Made by a program: the position numbers and the translations under genes. This document shows positions 47,821 through 61,725 of a DNA stretch of 64,000 nucleotides, piece by piece. The notes beneath the pieces were generated by a model. The model did not search any database and was not told the DNA's origin. It saw nothing but the letters and a program-made list of their open reading frames with translations. Each line of letters starts with the position of its first letter. Positions within the stretch are counted from its first letter, which is position 1. Source of the DNA: Spirochaetia bacterium. Its GTDB lineage: Bacteria; Spirochaetota; Spirochaetia; UBA9216. Where the stretch lies: NCBI GenBank assembly GCA_963675665.1, contig OY776510.1:384001-448000 (forward strand). The letters run 5' to 3'.

Positions 47821-48999
47821 TTAAAGCCTTGGCGCTGCCTGAGGCCTGACCGTCCCAACATCTGTTTTAAGCAGATACGCAAGCACCAACGTACCCAGTA
47901 AAAGCGGAACCGTAAAAACATAAAGGGCCTGCCGGTAACCGAAAGCATCAATCACCATGCCGAACAAAGCCGGACTCAGGGCTGACGTTACCGTAATAAC
48001 GCCCATCAGGATCCCGAAGATTTCTCCCTTGCCGAAACCCGAGCTCAGCCTTGAGATAAGCAGGTTCTGATTAATGACACATCCTGAGCTGAAAGCGCCG
48101 AAAAGAGTTATTACAATAATATAAACCCAGATGGGAAGGGTCCCGGACAGAATAAGCATTGTAACACCTGTGAATATTGTTCCGATCATGATAATTGCAT
48201 AAGAATTATATTTTTCAGACAGTTTTCCGGCAATTATCGAACCGGTTATTCCCCCGCCGAAGAAAAAAGCAGTTGCATATGATGCAGATCCTTCTTCCAT
48301 ACCGAAGAAATGAACAAAAATGGTCGGCAGAAAACTCAGCAGTGCAGAAACAGCAACAATACGAAGTATTACGGTAATCAGAAAAATCACAAGCCTTTTC
48401 AGATCGCGCGGTTCTTTCTGCGGGATTGATTCAGAAGACTGTCCCTGCCGCTTTTTTTGTCCCGGAGCGTTTCCAATTGTATCGGTTAACAGGTATACCG
48501 TACCCATTATAACCGCAGGCACAGCAGTTACCATAAGAACACCCCGGATCCCGATGCGACTGATAAGATAACCGTTTATCAAAAACATCAGCAGAATGGC
48601 TGATGTGCCGCAACATTCGTAGTACCCCATAATACTGCTTTTATTATCGGTGTAGGTTTCATCTATAACTGCATACATCACCGGATGAAACGTACTCATC
48701 CCTATGGCCGTGATCGAAATTAAAAGAATAAACACAGACAGATTGGGGGCAAAACCCGACGCTATTAATCCTGCGGCGGCCAGATAAAAACCGTAGCTTA
48801 GAATTTTTTTTCTTGTTATCCTGTCGGATATTTTTCCCAAAGTAATCGATCCGACAGCTGTAAAAAGAAGATAAACCGTAAGGATGCCTCCGGCTTCCGA
48901 ATAATTTAGCTGATACCGTGTAAGCAGTGAAGGCAGTACAAGCGGCAGAATAAACCAGAACAGGTCATTGGCACTATGCCCGAGAAGTTTCAATTTCAT
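47821..48999 (-). CDS. MFS transporter (Fsr-like)
   Basis: GHSANDL, GKISDRITRK motif A, STFHP; about 12 TM segments. Confidence 0.85.
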   Translation of the reverse strand: MKLKLLGHSANDLFWFILPLVLPSLLTRYQLNYSEAGGILTVYLLFTAVGSITLGKISDRITRKKILSYGFYLAAAGLIASGFAPNLSVFILLISITAIGMSTFHPVMYAVIDETYTDNKSSIMGYYECCGTSAILLMFLINGYLISRIGIRGVLMVTAVPAVIMGTVYLLTDTIGNAPGQKKRQGQSSESIPQKEPRDLKRLVIFLITVILRIVAVSALLSFLPTIFVHFFGMEEGSASYATAFFFGGGITGSIIAGKLSEKYNSYAIIMIGTIFTGVTMLILSGTLPIWVYIIVITLFGAFSSGCVINQNLLISRLSSGFGKGEIFGILMGVITVTSALSPALFGMVIDAFGYRQALYVFTVPLLLGTLVLAYLLKTDVGTVRPQAAPRL

Positions 49000-49016
49000 T
49001 GTTCTGTTATATTCTT

Positions 49017-50510
49017 TTAAAGAATGAGCATCAAGACTGCAAAGCTGAGAAAAAGCAGGCCGGTAAGAATTTTGATTATCCCCAGGTTGGTTTGAAATAT
49101 TCCGGTAATCTTTTTGGATGTAATCCCCAGATATACGACAATGAAGACTACAGCCAGAGGAATAATAAATGCAAGATTATACAATGCAAGGTAAAAATAA
49201 CCCGAAGCAGCTTTATCAGTCTGAATAATATAAGTAATAGTCGGAAAGTAGATCTGCCCTGTACAACCCAGTTCAAATATCGATATCAGAAAGCCCATAA
49301 CAATTGAACTTCCGGCAAGAGCCGCTGATTTCGTATAGGACCTTATAGAATCATGCATCCGCCGTTTTACAGAATCCGGAAGCTGTAAAATTATATCTTT
49401 TGTCTTTCCAGAGCGAATTTTCCCGTAATCATAAAAACTCAACCCCGCAAAGACAACAAGAACAGCAAAAAGAACCCACCTTATTATCCGGCTTACCAGC
49501 TCAAACGAATCGGCAATTCTTATAATTTTGAAAAATCCCAGCCCTATCAGATAATAGGTTATAAATACCGTTACCGTAAAAAACAGTCCGATAATCAGTG
49601 TCTCGCGCCGGCTTCTTCCGGCAACACTCAGCGCGCTTAATAAAAATATCAAGGTCGTAAAAGCACAGGGGTTTACTCCGTCCAGCAATCCGGCGGCAAG
49701 AACCGCAGCCAGAGACATGCTTATTCCATCAGATTTATTTCCCTTGCTTTCATTTTCTCCGGACGCGCCTGTATCCCGGCCGGAGTCGCCGGCCAGCAGC
49801 GCGGTATAACCTGCCATGACGGCTTCTTCACCCTGATAAATATCCTCTGTCGTAACAAAAACCGGGATCTCTTTTAACGATGTTCCGCGGTCGGCAAACA
49901 GCTGCTGCAGTTCTTCATAATACTCAGCTTCTGTTATATCCCGCTTGTCAATATTAATTTCGGCATCACGGAGAAACCGGTTGCAGCTCTTGCAGCCCGG
50001 GGTATAGTAATAACGGGGAATCTCTGTTGTCCCTTCCCCGGACATAATACCCGCGGAAGATTCCGGTTCAGCCGGCATTGTCGAATCATCCGCTGCATCT
50101 GCAGATACCGACGAAACATCCACACTGCCTGTAACTACAAAAAAGCCCTTGGGCATTGCATCTGAATTGGTCTGAATTATAAGCAGTTTTTCGAAGTCGC
50201 CGGAATCGTCATGGCTGTCAAAAACAATTGTAAATTCCGCCGATTCTCCGGCGGATATATCAAGGCTTTCAGGATAAGTTGTCATACAGCTGCAGGTACT
50301 GATTAAATCAACTGTAACATTTTCCGTAGTGTTGTTGGTAATTTTAACCGGCTGTTCAACAACATCCCCGTACTCAATCGAGCCTGTATTCCAGTCGGTT
50401 ATGCTGAATTCGAGATTGCCGCCGTCATCCTGGGCTGCAGCCGAAAATAAAACCAGAAAGGAAAAAGCAAGAGTTATAAATAATCTGTTCAGTCTGTTAA
50501 TTTTTTCCAT
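49017..50510 (-). CDS. DUF1573 Ig-like + CxxC glutaredoxin-like + CcdA/DsbD-type membrane domain fusion
   Basis: Signal peptide; STCSCMT; PGCKSC; LLDGVNPCAF and FELGCTG membrane Cys pair. Confidence 0.75.
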   Translation of the reverse strand: MEKINRLNRLFITLAFSFLVLFSAAAQDDGGNLEFSITDWNTGSIEYGDVVEQPVKITNNTTENVTVDLISTCSCMTTYPESLDISAGESAEFTIVFDSHDDSGDFEKLLIIQTNSDAMPKGFFVVTGSVDVSSVSADAADDSTMPAEPESSAGIMSGEGTTEIPRYYYTPGCKSCNRFLRDAEINIDKRDITEAEYYEELQQLFADRGTSLKEIPVFVTTEDIYQGEEAVMAGYTALLAGDSGRDTGASGENESKGNKSDGISMSLAAVLAAGLLDGVNPCAFTTLIFLLSALSVAGRSRRETLIIGLFFTVTVFITYYLIGLGFFKIIRIADSFELVSRIIRWVLFAVLVVFAGLSFYDYGKIRSGKTKDIILQLPDSVKRRMHDSIRSYTKSAALAGSSIVMGFLISIFELGCTGQIYFPTITYIIQTDKAASGYFYLALYNLAFIIPLAVVFIVVYLGITSKKITGIFQTNLGIIKILTGLLFLSFAVLMLIL

Positions 50511-51408
50511 TCTTCAGGTTATTGATTAATTCCTTTTTATAATCTTCAAACGCCTGAAGAATAATCGGATCTTCAGGGTCCTTTTCATATGTAAAGTAGC
50601 GCATACTGTTTGAAACAGATTTCAGCTTTTTTAATCTGAACGACAGTTCGAGCCTTCCGACCCTGTTGCCTTCCTCACCGGGAGAAGCAATCACCCGCTG
50701 TCCGTCGATATTCTCATAAAGTATCTGATCATGCGCCGACAGGATCGCGTCCCATCCGGTTTGATCAGCAAATATTTCCTTTGAAGCATCAAGATTCCCA
50801 TGATAAACCAGCAGCTTGTAATGCGCGCCGCCGTCGACCAGAGCCTTGTATGCCTGCACAGCCGAATCGACCGGTGAAAAAACACTGACCCTTGATTTGA
50901 CGTCCTCCGGATAAAAGAAAAACACACCTGGATCTATTACTGCTGCAATTCCGATTTTAATTCCTTTCCTCTCAATGATTAAAGGCTTTTGATTGACCGG
51001 TTTACCGTCTATTTTTACGTTGTCCGCTATAAACGCAATCTCCCCTGATATGGATTTAAAAAAATCGACGCCTGATCCCAGCTCCTGATCGCCGAGAGCC
51101 GCCGCATCATAACCAAGCCCGGAATACAATTCCACAAGCTTGGCGCTTAGAAGCTTGTCTGTGCGGGCATCGTTAAAATCACCGAGATCTATTATCACTG
51201 ACGATTCCGGATCAAGTCCGCGTATATATGCTGCAGTAGTGGACAGCCCGGCTTTTGGCACTCCCTTACACTCACAGCCTATAAGGTTTCCATTGAGTGA
51301 TGCTGTATAGTAAATGGAAACATCCGTATCGGCAAATATGCCTGCTGATGATAAAACGGTTAAAGTCAGAACGGCAAGCAGCAGTCTGAAAGCAACCGGT
51401 TTAGCCAT
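50497..51408 (-). CDS. Secreted UshA/5'-nucleotidase N-terminal-like protein with CxC motif
   Basis: YTASLNGNLIGCEC..AGL, DLGD, LGYDAAALGDQE, G..VGRLEL. Confidence 0.7.
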   Translation of the reverse strand: MAKPVAFRLLLAVLTLTVLSSAGIFADTDVSIYYTASLNGNLIGCECKGVPKAGLSTTAAYIRGLDPESSVIIDLGDFNDARTDKLLSAKLVELYSGLGYDAAALGDQELGSGVDFFKSISGEIAFIADNVKIDGKPVNQKPLIIERKGIKIGIAAVIDPGVFFFYPEDVKSRVSVFSPVDSAVQAYKALVDGGAHYKLLVYHGNLDASKEIFADQTGWDAILSAHDQILYENIDGQRVIASPGEEGNRVGRLELSFRLKKLKSVSNSMRYFTYEKDPEDPIILQAFEDYKKELINNLKNGKN

Positions 51409-51910
51409 TAAATGCTCCTGAAAGAATTTGCCTTATGTTATCGATATCTTCTTCATGGTACCCGACTGTTTTAAAGGCTATTTTACCGTCAGGATTAACC
51501 AGAAACATTGTCGGAAGCGCTTCAACGCCGAATGCTCCGGAGGCTTTCTGATATTTATCTATCAGGATCTGCACCGGTGTGGGTCTGTCTGCAAAAAACG
51601 GAACTACCACATCAAGCCCTTCATTGTCGGTGGCCATAAGAAAAACGTCGAAATCCCTGTCTGCAAATTCGTTGTAAAGCTCTTCGACATGAGGAAGTTC
51701 TTCATTACAGTTCTCACACCAGGTTGCATAAAAATCTATCAGCAGCCACCCGGTTCCATAGGTTTTCTTTGAAAAAACATAGTTTTTCCCGATATCCGTA
51801 AGTACAAACGCCGGAGCATCATCTCCTTCTTCTACAGCAAAGACCTGTACCGAAAAAATCATACTCATCAGCAGTACAATCAGAATTATTGCAGCAATTT
51901 TATTTTTCAC
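51401..51910 (-). CDS. TlpA-type thiol:disulfide oxidoreductase
   Basis: Signal peptide; DFYATWCENCNEELP; ALPTMFLVNPDG. Confidence 0.9.
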   Translation of the reverse strand: MKNKIAAIILIVLLMSMIFSVQVFAVEEGDDAPAFVLTDIGKNYVFSKKTYGTGWLLIDFYATWCENCNEELPHVEELYNEFADRDFDVFLMATDNEGLDVVVPFFADRPTPVQILIDKYQKASGAFGVEALPTMFLVNPDGKIAFKTVGYHEEDIDNIRQILSGAFNG

Positions 51911-51965
51911 AGCCCACCTTCCTGAAAATTGATATTATAAAGGATAACACCTTTGGAGTGCGGAA

Positions 51966-52433
51966 TCAATCCGCTTTGCATATTATCAGTTCCCAAACAA
52001 TGGAATCTTCTGTTTCAAGGTGCATATGAAAACCAAACCGTTTATGTAGACGTATTGAAGCCTCATTATTCCTGAAGCTTCGGCTTAAAAGTCTGTATAG
52101 CTTCCTTCTGCGGCAATCCTTAATCAGATCATCCATCATTAACGTTCCCAGGCCCTGTTTCTGTTTTGAAGGCAGAACCGCTATATCATAAATATGCGCT
52201 GTTTCAGTAATACGGGCATCACGCGGCCAAAGGGAATAACGGTAGAAACCTGCTATAACATCTCCGTCAAAAAGGTATTTAACACGGTCTTTATCGGTAT
52301 TGTGACTATCAATCATATCCGCAATCTTTTCAGAATCTGTTTTCTCACCGAATTCCCGCGGCCATTCAGCATTAATTAAATCAATTATTTCCGAGTAGTC
52401 CGGCAATCCTTCAATTTCTTTAAACATCATCAT
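51966..52433 (-). CDS. GNAT family N-acetyltransferase
   Basis: IAVLPSKQKQGLGT, NEASIRLHKRFGF. Confidence 0.88.
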   Translation of the reverse strand: MMMFKEIEGLPDYSEIIDLINAEWPREFGEKTDSEKIADMIDSHNTDKDRVKYLFDGDVIAGFYRYSLWPRDARITETAHIYDIAVLPSKQKQGLGTLMMDDLIKDCRRRKLYRLLSRSFRNNEASIRLHKRFGFHMHLETEDSIVWELIICKAD

Positions 52434-52453: not shown

Positions 52454-53317
52454 TCATATAAGCAGCCTTGTTGAGTCTTCCGGACTGTCAAGCGGTATTC
52501 TGATTACAGATAGCTCATCACCGTCATGCGCTCCGTTAATACATACGGTCCGGCCTATTTTCTGCATCCAGCTTCCGCTCAATCCTGCAGATTCATGCAC
52601 ATGCCCGTGTAAAGTCAGAAGCGGCTGACGCTCCTCAATAAAACGGTAAATTGCAATACTTCCAAGATGCTCATCGACCGGGACATGATCTACAACTGCG
52701 GCCCCTACATCGCCCAGATCCAGATCCGTACTGTAGGGCGGTGCGTGAAACAGAAACACTGCCTTATCAAGCTGTTCATCAGCAGTCAAATCATCAATAT
52801 CATCTTTTATTGTAGTCCACTTCTGTTCATGCTCGCTGGCCGGAAAAGATCGCCGGCCTTCTTCGGGACTGATGCATCCGACATCGATATATCTGGAAAC
52901 ATCATACCGTTCCCAGTCTTTCAGCATAAAAGGCGTCGGCGGTACATAGTTATAACCGTAAAAGGAATAGCTTTCCGCCAGCACTTTACGCTGATGGATA
53001 TATGTCCACAGTCCGTTTGCGCCGCCGGAAACCAGGGCTGATTCAAAATATTTCGGATCATCGTTTCCCATAATAATTAATGTTTCCGGATATTTTTTGC
53101 CGAGACGATTTTTTAAATCAGTAAAGTTTTTCACGAGGAATCCGTTTATAAAATCACTACCTCCGGGAACCGCAGAATCCGTCGCGGGCATAAAAGGCGA
53201 AAGGAGATCTCCTCCGACAAGAAGAATGTCCGGAGGGTTGCCGAGTAAATATTCAAACAGGGAAAGGTACCTTTCTTTTTTTCCGTGAAGATCCGTAACA
53301 AAAACAGCATCAGGCAT
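52454..53317 (-). CDS. Calcineurin-like metallophosphoesterase (Icc-related)
   Basis: TDLHG, GGDL, MGNDD, FHAPP, LHGHVHE. Confidence 0.9.
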   Translation of the reverse strand: MPDAVFVTDLHGKKERYLSLFEYLLGNPPDILLVGGDLLSPFMPATDSAVPGGSDFINGFLVKNFTDLKNRLGKKYPETLIIMGNDDPKYFESALVSGGANGLWTYIHQRKVLAESYSFYGYNYVPPTPFMLKDWERYDVSRYIDVGCISPEEGRRSFPASEHEQKWTTIKDDIDDLTADEQLDKAVFLFHAPPYSTDLDLGDVGAAVVDHVPVDEHLGSIAIYRFIEERQPLLTLHGHVHESAGLSGSWMQKIGRTVCINGAHDGDELSVIRIPLDSPEDSTRLLI

Positions 53318-56300
53318 TTTCAGATCCTAATTTAAGTTCTCTTGCGGCATCGGTAACTGCATTTATTTTTACCGCAATACTGGTTCGTTTTTCAATATCC
53401 GAATCTGTAAGATAATGAACATCGAGTAATTCTTCAGTTTTATAACCGGTCCGCAGATAATTAATCCTGCCCAAAGCCCGGCTCCAGCCGTCAAGCCACA
53501 GGGCAAGCGCTTCCTTTTTCCCGGCGTCATCACCAATATGAATTATCAAATCAATATCGCTCATCGGTCCGGCGGTTGCATTCTTTGTGCTGCCGAAGAG
53601 ATAAAAGGCCTTCACCCCGAAGAACCCGGCATCCAGCGATTCCGCAATAGTTTCCGCCATTGAATAGCGCCAGCTCCAGTAATCTTCATGTGTTTCGTTG
53701 TTATGGGAATATATATCAATTTGTTTACCGGAAGAAGAGGGATCGGAAAAAATGGCGATCGCCTCATTAATCTCCTCGTTCATAAGAACCTTCAAGACCT
53801 TTCCTTCTGTTTCTTTTCTGATATCGGTTACGAAAATAACACGGGAGAGCTCCGAAAAGTCCGGAAGTATCTCAGTAAGTATATTCTTTGAACGCGTTAA
53901 AAATGCATCTTTCATCAATATTCCGGGATCGTCGGGATACAAAGGAAGATATTTTATTTCGGCCTCAACAAGATCCTGAAAAAAATGAGTTCCGAAAGAG
54001 ACTTCGGGAAGATAATCCCCTTTTTTCCTGGCAATCTCAATCAGCATGGCGGTATTATTAATATCCGAGTAATTAACCCTTACTCCCAGTTTAATATCTC
54101 CGCGGCTTCCCCAACGCCCCGGCCCCATAAGAATAAAACGGCGTTTCGGAAGAATTGAATTCAGCCTGCCGACAGCGGCCCCCACGCGTTCCAGCTGTTC
54201 AAACGACGGTAAATCATTGTAGGCCTCAGGATCTATATAAACAATATAGTCGATATTATCAACAAGCCCGTTTGCAATATGCTTCTTCGCTGTAAAAAGA
54301 ACCTGGTTCTCGTTTATATCCTTGGGAATGGGCTGAGGAAGGCTTTCCCGAACCCCGGCCTGGGGCCTGCACTGGAGAAGAAAAAGCCGGCCGCCGCTGA
54401 AAGCGAATTCTATATCAACAATTGTATTTAAACGTTCTTTCAGTTCATCTATTATGGATTTTATTTTTTCAATAAGACCTGTATTTCGAATCAGCGGATC
54501 AAGAGTAAACACAAGATCATCATTCGCCGTATCAAGCTGAAATTTATTCCTGTTCTTGAAAATATCATCTTCAAATACAGAAAACAGAAGATCCATATCG
54601 GGATATGTAACCGGGTTGTTTCTCAGAAAATCTCTGACATTAACGGTTTCGAATATATTCGTACGCAGATTTATCACATCCATCATTCTGGGTGAATACC
54701 TTACAGCTTCGGACGGCAAAGGATTTACCTTCATCCCCGGATTTCCCGGGCAGATTAATACGGGATAATCATCGCTTAACCTGTCGACAGCCCGGGTTCC
54801 GAGACCGGGAACTATCCTGAGCAGACCGTCTTCCTTTGAAATCCTCGGGGACCAGCGATATTCATTACGGCCGAATCCTACGCCTGCAAAAGAAGGGAAA
54901 AAAAAGTCTCCCGCCTGTTCTCCGACAACCTCCTGAATAATAACAGCCATCTCCTCATGAAATTCAAGAAGACCATGCGCTTTTCGGTATTCAAGCGGAT
55001 CCGGGCCGAAAGTTGAAGCATATATTTCTGCTATAGCATCCAGTACAGCCGTAAGACGCTCCTCTCTGGATCCCTGATTGGCAAGAAAAAGACTTTTATA
55101 TTTACCCGAAAAAGCAGTTCCGTAACGGTCTTCCAGCAGGCTGGAACTTCTTACAATAACGGGTTTGTTTCCGAAGTCTTCCATAGCCATTGACAGTCCG
55201 TTGACAAAATCGATTGGAAAATTCGAGTTCTTGAAAACCTGTATCAGATTCGGATAATCCGCCCTGATTTCTTCTATATCCTTGTATTTCTGTTCAAGAG
55301 ATTCTTCAAGGTTATTATAATAAATAAATTTATGCATATAATCCGAAGATATATACCAGGTTTTCGGAATACTTACATCTATGCCCGCCTTTTTCAGAAA
55401 CTGCCCGGCAATAAACAGACCGGCGCTTTTGCCTCCAAGTTTTCCATGACTGTTATTAGGGTATATTGCGTGCTGCAGTACTGAATAAAAATCATTTACA
55501 TCAAGGTAATCTTTTGCTGATCTTATAAATTCCATCTGTTCAGTAAATACACGCTGTATAAAGAGCGCATTAATATTTGTTCTCGAATAACTGGAAATCT
55601 CAAAATGAGACTGGTTCAAATGATGAAATCTTGAAATGGCCGCGGCAATTCCCGATAACGGAGTATTGAAATTCTCCAGCGCACTGACAAGAAAGCCTGT
55701 TTTATCTTCTTTGATCCATTTATTCAGATATATTTTTATTTCGTCCTCAGACAAATTCTGGGATGCAATCTTGAAAATATGCTGATTAAATTTATCGTAC
55801 AGTTCAAAGTTAATTTTTAGAGACGGGATATTCACATCCTGAAGAACAGTAATATTTTCGCATTGTTTCTGAAGGCCCATACATCCGAGAACGCTCTGAG
55901 CTTCCCGGACGCCCAGCAGACACAGCCGGTTCAGCATACGTCTGGATATTTTCCTGAAAAGAATACTGTCCATTTTTTCCACCAGTTCAAGAATAACCAT
56001 CCAGTCCGGCTTTTTGTTGGCATCGATATCCTGCCTGGCTTTCTCCCACTGTTCAAGCGAAAACTGAAGATCCTGCTGAAAGAGAAAATTTTCAATTCTT
56101 TCGGCTATGGTATTAAGCAATTGCTGTTCTTCAGGAAGAAACGGACTTGACAACCGTGTTGAACCGTCGCTGAAGTGAACTTCTATGATACCGACCGGCT
56201 CGCCGCGAAGTATTAATTCCGCACTTTGGAACCATTTTGATGTCGAGAACCCGTCCGTCGTATAACTTTTATTTCTATAAACGATCCTTACTGAGCAGAA

Positions 56301-56474
56301 CGCCGGAAACTGCCACCCGGAAGGAATAATATCTATAAGCCTGGGGAACACATCCTCTATACTGAGCTGTTCCTTGTTGACAACTTCCTTGACTCTGTAA
56401 AGACATTGGAGCTCTTTTGCTCTTTCATTTAGATTCTGAATCAACGTATTCTCATCGAATGAATTACCGTTCAT
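53310..56474 (-). CDS. GAF-like + PPDK/PEP-synthase N-terminal ATP-grasp + nucleotidyltransferase multidomain protein
   Basis: ERAKELQCLY..PSGWQFP..PFLPEE; GKLGGKSAGL, VRSSSLLED, FSGKYKS, DIEFA, LQCRP; FGSTKNATAGPMSDIDL. Confidence 0.85.
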   Translation of the reverse strand: MNGNSFDENTLIQNLNERAKELQCLYRVKEVVNKEQLSIEDVFPRLIDIIPSGWQFPAFCSVRIVYRNKSYTTDGFSTSKWFQSAELILRGEPVGIIEVHFSDGSTRLSSPFLPEEQQLLNTIAERIENFLFQQDLQFSLEQWEKARQDIDANKKPDWMVILELVEKMDSILFRKISRRMLNRLCLLGVREAQSVLGCMGLQKQCENITVLQDVNIPSLKINFELYDKFNQHIFKIASQNLSEDEIKIYLNKWIKEDKTGFLVSALENFNTPLSGIAAAISRFHHLNQSHFEISSYSRTNINALFIQRVFTEQMEFIRSAKDYLDVNDFYSVLQHAIYPNNSHGKLGGKSAGLFIAGQFLKKAGIDVSIPKTWYISSDYMHKFIYYNNLEESLEQKYKDIEEIRADYPNLIQVFKNSNFPIDFVNGLSMAMEDFGNKPVIVRSSSLLEDRYGTAFSGKYKSLFLANQGSREERLTAVLDAIAEIYASTFGPDPLEYRKAHGLLEFHEEMAVIIQEVVGEQAGDFFFPSFAGVGFGRNEYRWSPRISKEDGLLRIVPGLGTRAVDRLSDDYPVLICPGNPGMKVNPLPSEAVRYSPRMMDVINLRTNIFETVNVRDFLRNNPVTYPDMDLLFSVFEDDIFKNRNKFQLDTANDDLVFTLDPLIRNTGLIEKIKSIIDELKERLNTIVDIEFAFSGGRLFLLQCRPQAGVRESLPQPIPKDINENQVLFTAKKHIANGLVDNIDYIVYIDPEAYNDLPSFEQLERVGAAVGRLNSILPKRRFILMGPGRWGSRGDIKLGVRVNYSDINNTAMLIEIARKKGDYLPEVSFGTHFFQDLVEAEIKYLPLYPDDPGILMKDAFLTRSKNILTEILPDFSELSRVIFVTDIRKETEGKVLKVLMNEEINEAIAIFSDPSSSGKQIDIYSHNNETHEDYWSWRYSMAETIAESLDAGFFGVKAFYLFGSTKNATAGPMSDIDLIIHIGDDAGKKEALALWLDGWSRALGRINYLRTGYKTEELLDVHYLTDSDIEKRTSIAVKINAVTDAARELKLGSENA

Positions 56475-58165
56475 AGTATAATAATTCCTTTCCGGGTATT
56501 TCCGTCTGCTATTATTTTAATACTTTTTTCAAATTTTATGTGCTTAAAAAACTTGCCTTCAAAAACAGTCTGTTGAGACTCCAGATAATTATAGTCTATA
56601 AAGCTGTCATTGTCCCGGCTGCAGGAATCTATCGAGAAATACACTGTGTCAGTATTCAGAATATTATGAAAAAAATGCGAACCCTGACTGAGTTCCGGAT
56701 TCATCTCCGGCAGCGTGGATTCGATGATTACGGAAGCCCCGGAAATCTGGGACCAGCTGACCGGAATTCCTAATGCCGGGTCCGAAGATCCCCAGCGGCC
56801 GAACCCGGACAAAATATATCTCTTGCCCTCAACAACCAGTTTCCGGTTGATTCTCTCAATTTCCAGCGGCATCTCGGCTGTTTTCAATGCGGAAAATCTT
56901 TGCGGATTTATATAGACAAAATCTTCAACATTTTCAATATATACGTTCCCCAGGGCATTATCGGTATAGGCAACCAGTTTACTCCTGTCGAAAGAAGATA
57001 TATCAGGGACAATACAGGTATTAAGTCTTTTCATGGGCCTTATTTGAAGAAAGGCGAAATCAGCCGTAGGTTTTTGAGGAAAATCAATATTGACGGCAAA
57101 TTCGATTTCTATTTCGGAACCTGTTTTTTCCCTGCATTTATCAAGAATATCCGTAACAAGTCTGTTTAAATTTATTATTTCGCCTTTAAGAATAGGTGAA
57201 AAATCAATTAGCTTGAAACCGGAGTCAAGAAAACCCATTTCCAGCCTGTCGGAGGACCTTGAATATGTCGAGCAGAGGCTGCTAATAATTTTACTTTCTT
57301 CAAGGCTTTTTACAGGCTGCAGCGACAAAAACTCTTTTTCATCAAGAGGCGACTCCTTATCCGGCGGTTTTAAATCAATTGCCCAGAAATCAGTCTGCCC
57401 GGCATCAAGAAGGTTTTTCAACGATGCGGGAGGCGGTGAAGCAGGTTTTTCAGGACTGTATATCCATTTTCGTCCGCCGTCAACAATTGTCTTTCCAAGT
57501 CCGGCCGCAAGTTCCACAATACCGCTTTCCGGCTTGCATCCGCTGAAAGGATAATAATTATATGAACGGCCGACGCCTGAAAATGCCGGATAAAAATATC
57601 TTCCGTATGATTTACCGTGAACCCTCTGGATAATGACCGCCATCCTTTCCATATCAATATCAATACCGGCTGATTTAAAACTGTCCCGGGAGGCTTCGAA
57701 CCAGACTGATGAATACACAAACTTTACAGCATTAATAAGCTGCAGAAACCTGACATCAGGGTCAGGATGATTATTGGGAATCATTTTTGTTGCAAACAAT
57801 CCGGCAAAAGGCCTGTTTAAAGAATCTTCGGTCAGACTGGAGGAACGTATTGCAAGAGGGCCTTTCCTGCCGTTTGAAATCTTTCTTACCTCTCCGATCA
57901 AAAACGGCGGAAAAGAAGCTTTGTTAAATAAAAGTGAAATCTGTTCATCTGTCTTGTTGTTTATGAGTTCAGATCTTAATTTATTTTCATTAATAAAAAG
58001 AGTAAATACATCAGAAAGAATGACTGTCATTTCGGGAACCCCGACAGAGATTCCGTGCCTGCCAACATCAGAAAAATATTCGTCTATCAGCGATTGTATC
58101 CTGATAAGGCCGGAACCTTTTCCTCCCGGAGCTCCGCTTCCAATAAATGATATTTTATTGTTCAT
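56471..58165 (-). CDS. PPDK/PEP-synthase N-terminal ATP-grasp protein
   Basis: GGKGSGL, IRSSSLTED, FAGLFAT, EIEFA, LQIRP, GRWGSSD, SQGSHFF; start ATG 58165. Confidence 0.85.
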   Translation of the reverse strand: MNNKISFIGSGAPGGKGSGLIRIQSLIDEYFSDVGRHGISVGVPEMTVILSDVFTLFINENKLRSELINNKTDEQISLLFNKASFPPFLIGEVRKISNGRKGPLAIRSSSLTEDSLNRPFAGLFATKMIPNNHPDPDVRFLQLINAVKFVYSSVWFEASRDSFKSAGIDIDMERMAVIIQRVHGKSYGRYFYPAFSGVGRSYNYYPFSGCKPESGIVELAAGLGKTIVDGGRKWIYSPEKPASPPPASLKNLLDAGQTDFWAIDLKPPDKESPLDEKEFLSLQPVKSLEESKIISSLCSTYSRSSDRLEMGFLDSGFKLIDFSPILKGEIINLNRLVTDILDKCREKTGSEIEIEFAVNIDFPQKPTADFAFLQIRPMKRLNTCIVPDISSFDRSKLVAYTDNALGNVYIENVEDFVYINPQRFSALKTAEMPLEIERINRKLVVEGKRYILSGFGRWGSSDPALGIPVSWSQISGASVIIESTLPEMNPELSQGSHFFHNILNTDTVYFSIDSCSRDNDSFIDYNYLESQQTVFEGKFFKHIKFEKSIKIIADGNTRKGIIIL

Positions 58166-58169
58166 AAAG

Positions 58170-58202
58170 ATAAAAACGCCGGATACCGGCACGGTATCCG
58201 GC
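58170..58202 (-). terminator. Terminator-like hairpin between gdh and ATP-grasp gene
   Basis: GCCGGATACCG-N3-CGGTATCCGGC followed by GTTTTTAT on the minus strand. Confidence 0.75.
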
Positions 58203-58209
58203 AATATTA

Positions 58210-59496
58210 TTAAGTCCAGCCACGCTGTTTACAGGCGTCGGCCACACGATTAACAGAAATTATGTATGCAGCATCTCTCATGTAAAGATTATTCTTTCCG
58301 GCAAGTTCCGAAACAGACATAAACGCTGAAGTCATCTTTAGATCAAGTTTACTTATCACCTCATCTTTTTCCCAGTAATAATTCATATTATTCTGTACCT
58401 GCTCAAAATAGCTGCATGTTACTCCCCCGGCATTTGCGAGAAAATCCGGAATTATAAATATTCCGCGCTCTTTTAAAATTTCATCTGCTTCAGGGGTCGT
58501 CGGACCGTTGGCCGCTTCGGCAATTATCTTTACACCTTTGCCTATTTTTCCAACAGTCTCTTTGGTTATCTGATTTTCAAGTGCCGCAGGAATAATAATA
58601 TCAACATCCTGCTCAATCCAGACATCCCCCGGAAGCACCTCATATCCCAGTGAAATTGCCTTTTCACGGTCTATACCTCCGAACCGGTCGGCTATTCCCC
58701 GAAGCTCTTCAAGGTTTATCCCGTCTTTCTTCCTGAATGAAAATGATTTCGACTCCTTTTGATCCCAGCAGGATACGCAAACAACAGTTCCGCCAAGCTG
58801 TTCATACAACTGTATTGCATACTGGGCAACATTGCCAAACCCCTGAATACTGGCGATTGTTTTTTCAGGCGACATATTAAGTTCCTTCAAGGCCTCTCGC
58901 AGGGTAAATATCACCCCGAAACCGGTTGCTTCAGTTCTTCCAAGGGACCCGCCGAGACCGACCGGTTTACCGGTAATTACACCGGGATATTTTGCTCCGG
59001 TTATGGCTTCGTACTCATCCAGCATCCAGATCATATGTTGGCCGTTAGTCATTACATCCGGCGCCGGAACATCGCGAACCGGCCCAAGCGCACCCGCAAG
59101 CTGTCTAATCCAGCCCCTGCAGATTCTTTCCTGTTCTCCTGCGCTAAGATGATGCGGATCACATATTACTCCGCCTTTGCTTCCGCCCAAAGGAATATCC
59201 ACTACGCTGCATTTCCAGGTCATCCACATGGATAAAGCTCTGACGGTGTCAATTGTTTCAAGCGGATGAAATCTGATTCCGCCTTTCCCCGGACCAAGCG
59301 CATCATTATGCTGACACCTGAATCCGTTGAAAACCTTAACACTCCCGTCATCCATTCTCACGGGGATATTTACATGATATTCCCGCATGGGAACCCTTAA
59401 AAGATCTCTTGTGCCCTGATCAAGCATAAGATATTCGGCAATATTGTCGAACTGCTGTTGTGCCATTTTAAACGCATTATAAGACTGGTCTTTCAT
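58210..59496 (-). CDS. gdhA: Glu/Leu/Phe/Val dehydrogenase (glutamate dehydrogenase)
   Basis: GPGKGGIRFHP, MTWKC, GGSKGG, DVPAPD, QGFGNV, EAANGPTT, NAGGVTCSYFE. Confidence 0.93.
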   Translation of the reverse strand: MKDQSYNAFKMAQQQFDNIAEYLMLDQGTRDLLRVPMREYHVNIPVRMDDGSVKVFNGFRCQHNDALGPGKGGIRFHPLETIDTVRALSMWMTWKCSVVDIPLGGSKGGVICDPHHLSAGEQERICRGWIRQLAGALGPVRDVPAPDVMTNGQHMIWMLDEYEAITGAKYPGVITGKPVGLGGSLGRTEATGFGVIFTLREALKELNMSPEKTIASIQGFGNVAQYAIQLYEQLGGTVVCVSCWDQKESKSFSFRKKDGINLEELRGIADRFGGIDREKAISLGYEVLPGDVWIEQDVDIIIPAALENQITKETVGKIGKGVKIIAEAANGPTTPEADEILKERGIFIIPDFLANAGGVTCSYFEQVQNNMNYYWEKDEVISKLDLKMTSAFMSVSELAGKNNLYMRDAAYIISVNRVADACKQRGWT

Positions 59497-59531
59497 TCTC
59501 TGCACCTCTGTATCAATGAAAATATAAATAG

Positions 59532-59706: not shown

Positions 59707-60405
59707 TTAATCTGCCGAACCGCAGATATACTCCGCATACTTATTTGGAACAAGAAGTGCTTTGCCGCCGTCAATTGTAACCCTGATCCCCTCGGTTTCA
59801 ACTGCGTCAACCATCATTCTGCGCCCCGGTCTGAGTTCATTTTCATAACAGAACTGGAGCAGACCTTCCTCGGCTTCCCCTTCTTCAGTTATCCTGACAA
59901 GCCGGACATTGCTGCTTTCAACTGCCTGACTGAGACGTGGCGCCGCAAGGATTTCATTTTCCAGGGGTGAACCGGGAAAAGGATTGCCGTGAGGACAGGT
60001 TTCCGGTCTGCCCAGTTTATCATGGAGAAAATATGCGAAATCATCAGATATTGCAGCCTGCAGCCTGGAAGCTTCCTCATCCGATTTAACCCAGTGATAA
60101 TCAAGCATTTTTATAAGAAGATGTTCAATCAGATAGTGTCTTTTCAGAAGCCTTGAGGCTGTTATTCTGCCTGAAGCCGTCAGATTTATCGAGCCGTATA
60201 GATCCTGCTCAATAAGGCTGTATCTTTTCAAACGATTCATGGCCTGTGTTACGGCGGGTTTCGATACTCCCAGACGAGCCGCTATTACCGAGTTTTTTAC
60301 AATACCGTAATCCCGGTTTGTGATAAATATTTCAATCAAGTACTCCGCCGCCGCCGGGAATTTCTTTGTTAATTCTTCCAAATCATAAACCTGATCTTTT
60401 CCCAT
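59707..60405 (-). CDS. DtxR/MntR family metal-dependent regulator with FeoA-like C-terminus
   Basis: IAARLGVSKPAVT, KRHYLIE, LGRPETCPHGNPFP; start ATG 60405. Confidence 0.92.
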   Translation of the reverse strand: MGKDQVYDLEELTKKFPAAAEYLIEIFITNRDYGIVKNSVIAARLGVSKPAVTQAMNRLKRYSLIEQDLYGSINLTASGRITASRLLKRHYLIEHLLIKMLDYHWVKSDEEASRLQAAISDDFAYFLHDKLGRPETCPHGNPFPGSPLENEILAAPRLSQAVESSNVRLVRITEEGEAEEGLLQFCYENELRPGRRMMVDAVETEGIRVTIDGGKALLVPNKYAEYICGSAD

Positions 60406-60450
60406 AAGCTCAGAATACACTATTTTGCCCCTTATAAAAAGAAATTCTAA

Positions 60451-61725
60451 CATAGCTGTCCAAAATAAGGACTATTAATAGCCTGAATCCCTGGTTATAA
60501 TGAATTGAGCGGGCAAGCTTAAATCATTACAACGGAAGGAAAACAGGCAATGAGTTATAAGAATAGCATTTTAAATCAGATACTTCAAATCATTCCGAGA
60601 CATGAATTTGAAAGATCTGTCAGAAAGTATAAAGGAGATTTTGCTTCAAAAGGATTCTCCTGTTGGGAACAATTTGTTTCAATGCTGTTTGCCCAATTTA
60701 CAGGACAGACCGGACTTAGAGGCATAGAAACAGCATTGGATTCGATTAAAAACATGCTTTATCATTTGGGGGTAAAAAAGCTTAAACGCTCAACACTTTC
60801 CTATGCAAATAACAACAGACCCTCAGAAATTTATGAAAATGTATTCAATAACCTGCTGACAAAGATCCTTAAAATGAAAAGGTCTCATAAGCATAGATTT
60901 AAAAATCCGCTGTACAGTGTTGATGCGACAACCATCGATTTATGCCTGTCAGTATTTCCATGGGCGAAGTTTAGAAAGAATAAAGGCGGAATCAAACTTA
61001 ATGTAAAACTTGATCACAGCGGATATATTCCGGACTTTGTATCTGTTACAACAGCTCAAACCCATGAGCTTAATTCACTCAAGAAAATGAAATTCAATAA
61101 AGGTGATGTAGTTGCATTCGATCGGGCCTATACAGATTTCAAATTATTTGCAAGTTATTGTATTGCAGGCATTTATTTTATTACTCGTATGAAAAAGAAT
61201 GCAGATTATAAAGTTGTTCAAAGAAATAATGTTTCAAAATATGAAAATATTTCATCAGATCAAATAATTGAAATGCGAGGATACTACACCAGCAAGAAGT
61301 GACCACTCCAATTACGGCGAATTAGAATAAAAGATCCGGAAACAGGAAAATATATTGTAATTCTTACAAATCAGCTTGATTGGGCACCTACAACAGTTGC
61401 TGCTGTCTATAAGGACAGATGGCAGATAGAAATATTCTTCAAAACAATCAAACAGAACCTGAAAATAAAGAAGTTTTTTGGAACGACGAAAAATGCAGTA
61501 ATGACTCAGATCTGGATAGCATTGATAACTCATCTGATGCTGCAATATCTGAAGATGTTATCTTCCGGTGGATGGACTCATTATTCGCTTATGAAATTGC
61601 TTCCATCAATCCTGACGACCAGAAAAGATCTCTGGAATATTCTGAATAAACTACCGCCGCCCGGCAGAAATGAGCCAGGCTTAAAACTTCAAATGGAGCT
61701 GTTATGATTGTTTTGGACAGCTATG
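60451..61725 (+). mobile_element. IS4-family insertion sequence, 1275 bp
   Basis: Perfect 15-bp terminal IRs CATAGCTGTCCAAAA / TTTTGGACAGCTATG; 9-bp target duplication AAATTCTAA (60442-60450, 61726-61734). Confidence 0.95.
60550..61707 (+). pseudogene. IS4 transposase interrupted by one in-frame TGA (61300-61302)
   Basis: VDATTI, FDRAY, and after the TGA, in the same frame, LTN..YKDRWQIEIFFKTIK (YREK motif). Confidence 0.9.

Follow-up and report, generated by a model that had tools for sequence, protein, structure and literature searches.

A glutamate dehydrogenase-linked cassette of PPDK-type ATP-grasp, nucleotidyltransferase and phosphoesterase proteins: a candidate regulatory module in mostly uncultured bacteria

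In a 64,000-nt stretch of the genome of a Spirochaetia bacterium (positions 384,001 to 448,000 of contig OY776510.1; hereafter the window), the glutamate dehydrogenase (GDH) gene gdh is followed by three genes, which encode a protein with an ATP-grasp domain of the kind found in pyruvate, phosphate dikinase (S577), a larger multidomain protein with the same kind of domain that forms the core of the cassette (L1054) and a calcineurin-like metallophosphoesterase (MPE). The four genes are consecutive and co-directional on the minus strand (52454-59505), to which all cassette coordinates given below refer. The principal result of our analysis is that this cassette is a real, widespread and uncharacterised enzyme module tied to GDH. 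As to its role, we consider it roughly an even bet (probability of about 0.5) that the cassette is an ATP-driven regulator dedicated to GDH, in which a sensor would drive a phospho-histidine and nucleotidyltransferase machinery.

Linkage of the cassette to gdh across genomes

The gdh gene of the window (58210-59496) encodes a protein of 428 amino acids when read from the ATG at 59496, which is the likely start and gives the same length as in the orthologues; the GTG at 59505 would give 431 amino acids. The protein belongs to the hexameric ELFV class of about 420 amino acids. It matches the Pfam families ELFV_dehydrog (E = 2.8e-69) and ELFV_dehydrog_N (E = 7.4e-53), its best solved relative is 1euz (E = 7.7e-123), and the NCBIfam model GdhA_Arch scores 469.7 on it, under the equivalog cut-off of 750.

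Relatives of L1054 number in the thousands overall, and a search of a collection holding one genome per species confirmed them at at least 590 places (590 of the 600 matches listed). A survey of gene neighbourhoods, which the initial annotation had put forward as a check on the linkage to gdh, covered 80 loci and was strongly positive: of the 61 loci whose upstream flank measures 3.3 kb or more, 60 carry just upstream of L1054 a GDH that is 65-76% identical to that of the window. Where 1.8 kb or more of upstream sequence is available (69 loci), S577 lies between gdh and L1054 in 54. Furthermore, the labels of the carriers fall into at least 13 phylum-level groups, with Ignavibacteria, Planctomycetota, Acidobacteriota, Cloacimonadota, Calditrichia, Krumholzibacteria, Eisenbacteria, Zixibacteria, Bradymonadales, Firmicutes, Chloroflexota, Bacteroidota, Spirochaetes and Chitinispirillaceae all represented; by label, the carriers are mostly uncultured anaerobes of sediments, groundwater and digesters. 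When the 1060 neighbouring open reading frames (ORFs) of the 80 loci were clustered de novo, the only additional recurrent neighbours were two-component proteins (in 17, 10 and 9 loci), and no metabolic enzyme or transporter recurred among them. At one locus, from a metagenome-assembled genome of Krumholzibacteriia (L058:10001-14629), the S577 and L1054 frames are split into several short ORFs, representing either a decayed cassette or assembly errors. The full-text literature searches made for it found no description of the cassette, and ProFaNA mentions its ATP-grasp family, PPDK_N, only beside SelO.

Domain composition and conserved residues of the cassette proteins

The initial annotation had described the first two genes after gdh as paralogues sharing the ATP-grasp domain of pyruvate, phosphate dikinase (PPDK) and phosphoenolpyruvate (PEP) synthase but lacking the barrel, and the present data agree with that description. 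That is, S577 (56471-58165; 564 amino acids) and L1054 (53310-56474; 1054 amino acids) are 25% identical over 531 aligned columns (E = 6e-37), an alignment that covers the ATP-grasp and the domain following it. Both match the Pfam family PPDK_N (PF01326), S577 with an E value of 8.3e-27 and L1054 with 4.9e-53 (residues 345-722, ATP/AMP-binding; 54309-55442), and in neither protein did Pfam detect the PEP/pyruvate TIM barrel (PEP-utilizers_C, PF02896) or the PEP-utilizers domain (PF00391). S577 is made up of this ATP-grasp domain and a C-terminal domain of about 175 residues, with no sensor and no nucleotidyltransferase, whereas L1054 also matches NTP_transf_2. Residues K349, R442, D687, E689, Q701 and R703 of the L1054 ATP-grasp are invariant in 27 sequences, as are K16, R107, E353, E355, Q374 and R376 of S577 in 28 sequences. 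NCBIfam models for PEP synthase and PPDK gave 15-60 bits against cut-offs of at least 456 bits, besides weak matches to PigC/RedH ligases, and a complete 889-amino acid PPDK with all three domains is encoded elsewhere in the genome (barrel PF02896 at E = 3.3e-77). Judging from this domain content, S577 and L1054 are not PEP synthases, which upholds the earlier proposal. The nearest solved sequences to the L1054 ATP-grasp are rifampin phosphotransferases (5hv6 and 5fbs, E = 6e-9 to 8e-8); matches in the PDB sequence search were otherwise limited to weak ones for the nucleotidyltransferase, and there were none for MPE. Since the two proteins are fused in some species, S577 and L1054 probably act together: fused ORFs of 1635 and 1651 amino acids occur in loci L017 and L040, 15 of the 120 best L1054 relatives are 1617-1655 amino acids long, and three proteins of 1523-1654 amino acids carry two stretches each of the C-terminal domain described next.

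The domain that follows the ATP-grasp in both S577 and L1054 was not mentioned in the initial annotation and will be named Cdom hereafter (residues 723-910 of L1054; 53745-54308). In L1054 its motifs GPGRWGSRGD and SFGTHFFQDLVE are invariant, and there is not one insertion or deletion across 57 orthologues. Eleven Cdom residues, including G-R-x-G of the GRWGS loop and S-x-G-x-H-F, are invariant across three subfamilies. The single invariant histidine is H830 in L1054 (codon 53985-53987) and H497 in S577, and the residue before it is always Ser or Thr. No Pfam family or PDB sequence matched Cdom. At the level of structure, Foldseek found no match in the PDB at E ≤ 0.001 for either of the two models (L1054 N-terminal; Cdom/nucleotidyltransferase), and the usable matches came from VIA-align, in which the best hit of the Cdom model (predicted local distance difference test score, pLDDT, 85.7) was 2fm4, the phosphoryl carrier domain of PPDK (Z 5.7, root mean square deviation (rmsd) 3.2, 110 of 128 aligned, model residues 1-192), followed by an RraA-like protein (Z 5.2). 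On account of its position, its invariant histidine and this middling fold score, Cdom may be read as a divergent swivelling phospho-histidine domain. The Cdom profile found 2395 clusters at E ≤ 0.001 among 1.84 billion representatives, and Cdom was preceded by PPDK_N in all 18 of the 18 odd-length proteins scanned. Given that a Cdom with an invariant histidine and a fold like that of the PPDK carrier follows both ATP-grasp domains, we take a phospho-histidine relay to be the probable core chemistry, which would make the nucleotidyltransferase an add-on of one subfamily only.

At the other end of L1054, residues 10-150 (56025-56447) adopt a GAF fold in the model (pLDDT 79.6), in keeping with the GAF-like sensor that had been suggested for the N-terminus. 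The best chain was 3cit_B (Z 12.9, rmsd 2.3, 123 of 150 aligned), 59 chains reached a Z of at least 8, and the best 50 entries, all with Z of at least 8.3, were nearly all GAF domains; the GAF domain of a PtsP (3trc) was also among the matches, with a Z of 10.6. The Pfam GAF family had no match on L1054 itself. Residues 157-337 (55464-56006), all-helical according to the secondary structure of the model, matched no family. A profile of residues 1-155 matched histidine kinases (E = 1e-27 to 1e-41) encoded within a few kb of gdh in eight loci, namely six cassette loci and two loci with a non-cassette gdh, and the gene between the GAF kinase and gdh was a sigma-54-dependent response regulator in seven of them and a LuxR-type regulator in the eighth (L001). 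These GAF kinases stand just upstream of gdh in L001, L016, L028, L062, L071, L074, L123 and L127. From this gene arrangement, the same GAF sensor appears to be coupled to gdh transcription as well as to the L1054 enzyme. A single-sequence query of the window's genome found no second protein with this sensor.

The C-terminal residues 930-1054 of L1054 (53313-53687) form a minimal, MNT-type Pol-beta nucleotidyltransferase, with a Pfam match to NTP_transf_2 (PF01909) at residues 953-1028 (E = 2.6e-6; 28.2 bits against a cut-off of 21). Residues G961, S962, D973, D975 and D1018, the last being the third carboxylate, are invariant; an intact GS-x9-DxD motif had been claimed for this domain, and the catalytic residues are indeed preserved, but the spacing is GS-x10-DxD (G961 S962 to D973 x D975). 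The best fold match was 8xeh_E, a HEPN-MNT chain (Z 8.0, rmsd 3.3, 103 of 104 aligned), so that the nearest relatives in fold are MNT antitoxins that AMPylate proteins, and aminoglycoside nucleotidyltransferases were also among the fold neighbours.

MPE (52454-53317; 287 amino acids) matches Metallophos (PF00149) at E = 7.9e-10, with 39.9 bits against a cut-off of 21.5. Positions D9, H11, G36, G84, N85, D86, D87, H191, H239 and H241 never vary, and D37 hardly does. This means that the DxH, GD, H and GHxH elements of the calcineurin-like phosphoesterase described as intact in the initial annotation are all present, but motif III is an invariant GNDD and not GNH(D/E). The protein also carries a strongly conserved, family-specific insert at residues 125-154. 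Of the 68 loci with 1.2 kb or more of downstream sequence, 47 have MPE after L1054, which makes it a conserved neighbour, but not always an operon member, as it is convergent (on the opposite strand) in 40 of the 47 and on the same strand, as in the window, in only seven. Moreover, because there is a two-gene form, gdh-L1054, that is without both S577 and MPE, MPE would seem to pair with S577 and not with the nucleotidyltransferase. In the 60 loci with sufficient flank, both S577 and MPE occurred in 40, neither in 12, S577 only in six and MPE only in two, the MPE of the last two being divergent (37-38% identity); before correction for relatedness the association is strong (odds ratio 40, Fisher p = 9e-7), and we regard the pairing as a lead from gene content. 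Membership of a known defence system was considered and rejected, PADLOC having returned only short, weak domain-level matches.

Related family members, the linked GDH clade and the surrounding locus

Proteins with PPDK_N and Cdom fall into four subfamilies by their input domain (GAF, receiver, unknown or none), which are paired with two GDH classes. The genome of the window has just two GDH genes of the ELFV type, and each stands beside a member of the PPDK_N-Cdom family. The second GDH is a 448-amino acid protein of the E. coli/Clostridium type, 33% identical to that of the window, and 115 nt upstream of it lies a gene for a 988-amino acid paralogue composed of a receiver, PPDK_N and Cdom (G000:C1:3307880-3312310, corresponding to L081:5881-10309). 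Two M20 peptidase genes are located divergently upstream of this second pair. Comparison of the N-terminal 342 residues of L1054 with the receiver-type paralogue revealed no similarity (hhalign probability 0.2), and the input regions of the two proteins are therefore unrelated. A receiver-type protein adjoins an E. coli-type GDH in L009, L016, L020, L050 and L077, and does so in 5 of the 12 loci drawn from a sample of 201 genomes of the window's phylum with a flank of 1.5 kb. The fourth subtype, of about 865 amino acids, combines a 290-residue N-terminus without assignment with PPDK_N and Cdom (L098-L112, e.g. L101:418-3012); it matches the Cdom profile with an hhalign probability of 99.8 (E = 4e-30) and is found beside an E. 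coli-type GDH in 7 of 15 spirochaete loci. Judged by gene order, the tie to GDH has arisen independently more than once, involving another GDH class and other family members.

Within the 201 genomes, matches to the GDH of the window are bimodal, with 70-72% identity in five genomes besides its own and then 55% or less. No PPDK_N-Cdom gene was found within about 4 kb of 16 gdh loci of low identity, i.e. of the same GDH class and phylum at 55% or less. The GDH clade linked to the cassette is set apart from these 16 by 35 near-invariant, clade-specific residues and by small insertions at positions 246-251 (with an invariant W247), 285-288 and 322-323 in the 431-amino acid numbering. The first insertion presumably comes after strand two of the dinucleotide-binding fold, the place that sets coenzyme preference. 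Two long GDH-containing proteins carry signalling-type domains, P0284 with HD_5 and GGDEF (1028 amino acids) and P0298 with an HD domain (1583 amino acids); such GDH-HD/GGDEF fusions are possibly other ways of coupling GDH to signalling.

The three genes after gdh had been described as overlapping. This is the case for S577/L1054 (4 nt) and L1054/MPE (8 nt), but gdh and S577 do not overlap. S577 most likely begins at the ATG at 58165, 44 nt past the gdh stop codon, which gives 564 amino acids; we place the start there because the alternative in the ORF list, a TTG at 58204, sits inside a strong hairpin. This terminator-like element (58167-58203) separates the gdh stop from the start of S577. 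It has a stem of 12 bp, eight of them G-C, and a loop of 3 nt, with the U-tract TTTTTATCTT after it; it folds at -22.4 kcal/mol (z = -5.0), and none of 200 shuffled sequences folded equally well. A comparable hairpin with a T-run within 110 nt of the gdh stop was detected in 14 of 65 loci, compared with 10 of 280 control windows taken within L1054. The element would fit strong gdh expression with reduced read-through into the regulators. Between gdh and the gene upstream of it, no sigma-54 promoter was matched by the consensus TGGCAC-N5-TTGC with up to two mismatches; in the window this consensus had 26 matches, below the 48 expected by chance.

Directly past MPE on the minus strand (47821-52433) are genes for a GNAT acetyltransferase, a redoxin, a 303-amino acid UshA-like protein with no Pfam match, a DUF1573/DsbD-like membrane protein and an MFS transporter. 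As these do not recur at the cassette (in the 80 related loci the GNAT, 303-amino acid and DsbD-like genes were found in none, and the redoxin and MFS transporter genes in one each), we regard them as standing outside the system. On the other side, between a gene for a DtxR-family regulator (59707-60453) and feoB, a 250-amino acid ORF on the plus strand (60550-61302) contains DUF4372 and only the first half of the DDE_Tnp_1 transposase domain, and is probably a truncated IS4-like element.

Possible mechanism, alternatives and comparison with known systems

GDH stands where carbon and nitrogen metabolism meet, and the control of glutamine synthetase is well studied, yet we know of no dedicated covalent or protein-based GDH switch in bacteria. 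In the mechanism that we favour, L1054 would sense a metabolite through its N-terminal GAF domain, and its PPDK-type ATP-grasp would phosphorylate H830 of the swivel-type carrier from ATP, in the manner of PPDK, PEP synthase and the PPDK derivative VadK. The phospho-histidine state and/or the MNT-type nucleotidyltransferase would then alter GDH activity post-translationally, the likeliest route being a covalent modification of GDH, either phosphorylation or addition of AMP or UMP. S577 would serve as a sensor-less paralogue in complex with L1054, and MPE may take off the S577-dependent modification. This bears out in part the suggestion of the initial annotation, a sensor-driven system that could modify GDH or make a small-molecule signal and be undone by the phosphoesterase. 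With a defined sensor, a catalytic histidine, a nucleotidyltransferase triad and a phosphoesterase, the cassette is a testable candidate for a GDH switch.

Several observations weigh against a dedicated GDH regulator of this kind. With regard to linkage, locus L002 has L1054 and no gdh within 10 kb, and the receiver-type and 865-amino acid subtypes adjoin GDH in under half of their loci, though the flank there is only 1.5 kb. A GDH of the linked clade (71% identity; L129:8037-9401 on contig G018:C34) is encoded by the spirochaete genome G018, which is 95% complete and in which no Cdom protein was found, and this GDH therefore works without the cassette; a GDH that does not need the cassette fits a regulator, and fits hitch-hiking of the cassette genes as well. 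No fusion of GDH with PPDK_N or other cassette domains was seen among 54 long GDH-containing proteins, which is weak evidence. In the window itself, the strong hairpin parts gdh from S577, and hence co-transcription is not assured. Concerning the chemistry, a profile comparison of Cdom with the PEP-utilizers histidine domain from the genome's own PPDK gave no similarity (hhalign probability 0.1), and in the middling match of Cdom to the PPDK carrier the two most conserved loops are modelled at low confidence. Finally, the association of S577 with MPE is not significant on the L1054 tree, where four independent pairs comprised about two concordant, no discordant and about two unchanged ones.

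The cassette could instead carry out small-molecule chemistry, an explanation that we consider unlikely. According to this alternative, a metabolite tied to the GDH reaction would be phosphorylated or nucleotidylated, or a nucleotide signal would be made, and MPE would degrade the product. The kinship of the ATP-grasp with rifampin phosphotransferases, the weak PigC/RedH ligase matches and the aminoglycoside nucleotidyltransferases among the fold neighbours of the C-terminal domain all point in this direction. However, no recognisable substrate-binding domain comes after the carrier domain, the recurrent neighbours are signalling genes only, with no biosynthetic or transport gene among them, and GAF and receiver input domains are typical of regulators.

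Rather unlikely, too, is a non-covalent regulator or energy sensor, in which L1054, with or without S577, would bind the GDH hexamer and switch it allosterically through its own ligand or phospho-histidine state (ATP/AMP ratio, GAF ligand), with no group being transferred. The linkage data speak for this model exactly as they do for covalent control, and the 35 clade-specific GDH residues and three insertions could form a docking surface, although such residues are expected in any clade of 70% identity and prove no interface. VadK is reported to interact with its target enzymes (PMC13400623). What this model leaves without a role are the invariant nucleotidyltransferase residues and the phosphoesterase.

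It is quite improbable that the linkage is accidental, i.e. that the genes are co-transferred with gdh and act on something else. The clade GDH without cassette in G018 and the L1054 without gdh in L002 would be in accordance with such hitch-hiking, and the identity of about 70% between GDHs of different phyla points to lateral transfer of the block. Adjacency was nevertheless held in 60 of 61 loci under at least 13 phylum-level labels, it arose again with the other GDH class and other family members, and the GAF sensor is separately wired to gdh via histidine kinases and sigma-54 regulators. Isoenzymes of PEP synthase or PPDK serving gluconeogenesis from glutamate carbon can practically be dismissed: relatives are named 'pyruvate, water dikinase' or 'pyruvate, phosphate dikinase' in databases and PPDK_N is present, but the barrel is missing, Pfam gave no PEP-utilizers match, the NCBIfam scores (15-60 bits against at least 456) are far too low, and the genome has its full PPDK elsewhere.

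Beyond the GAF-type cassette, it is conceivable, though less likely than not, that PPDK_N plus Cdom defines an unrecognised family of ATP-driven phospho-histidine transducers with GDH as dedicated output, in which varied inputs would converge on a single relay exerting covalent control over two unrelated GDH classes. The GAF/nucleotidyltransferase form would then join phosphoryl and nucleotidyl transfer, for example by AMPylating GDH or the Ser/Thr that adjoins the carrier histidine, and S577 and the GNDD-type MPE would be a writer-eraser pair. On this reading, hundreds of mostly uncultured anaerobes would possess a cascade for GDH that is comparable to GlnE/GlnD.

In the control of nitrogen assimilation, the adenylyltransferase GlnE and the uridylyltransferase GlnD exert a reversible, metabolite-driven control of the Pol-beta type over glutamine synthetase and PII, using tandem nucleotidyltransferase-plus-helical modules and an NTase-HD-ACT arrangement, respectively. 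The architecture of the cassette is unrelated: here the nucleotidyltransferase is an MNT-type domain of about 125 residues, removal of the group would be the task of a separate metallophosphoesterase, and neither the GlnE nor the GlnD family matched among the Pfam and NCBIfam results for the cassette proteins. PPDK, PEP synthase and rifampin phosphotransferase share with the cassette the motif residues of the PPDK_N ATP-grasp, and the carrier fold is nearest to 2fm4; the cassette proteins differ from PPDK and rifampin phosphotransferase in being without a barrel or rifampin-binding domain and in having a carrier of about 190 residues with motifs of its own (GRWGS; G-[ST]-H-F-F). The MntA-HepT (MNT-HEPN) antitoxins are minimal nucleotidyltransferases that AMPylate a protein partner and include the best fold match, 8xeh_E, but the cassette has no HEPN partner and its domain is fused to a large signalling enzyme.

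A precedent for GDH being switched off by AMPylation comes from SelO, which reportedly inactivates mammalian GDH (GLUD1) in this way (PMC12375108); this system is unrelated, SelO being a kinase-fold enzyme and the site being situated in the animal-specific antenna. In its logic, the closest system is EI-Ntr (PtsP), in which an N-terminal GAF domain controls a swivelling histidine domain of the PEP-utilising superfamily in response to nitrogen status: the GAF domain is reported to bind glutamine and to block autophosphorylation of the histidine (PMC4848567). EI-Ntr differs from L1054 in using PEP and not ATP, in having the barrel and in passing phosphate to NPr and EIIA-Ntr, and it lacks both an ATP-grasp and a nucleotidyltransferase.

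[quoted passage not shown] As far as described there, VadK is actinobacterial, is without GAF domain, nucleotidyltransferase or paired phosphoesterase, and has partners other than GDH; the likeness is one of architecture and not of sequence. [quoted passage not shown] If the cassette proteins do act on GDH in the way proposed here, they would widen the idea, so far resting on VadK alone, that evolution has put PPDK-type dikinases to new use as regulatory kinases.

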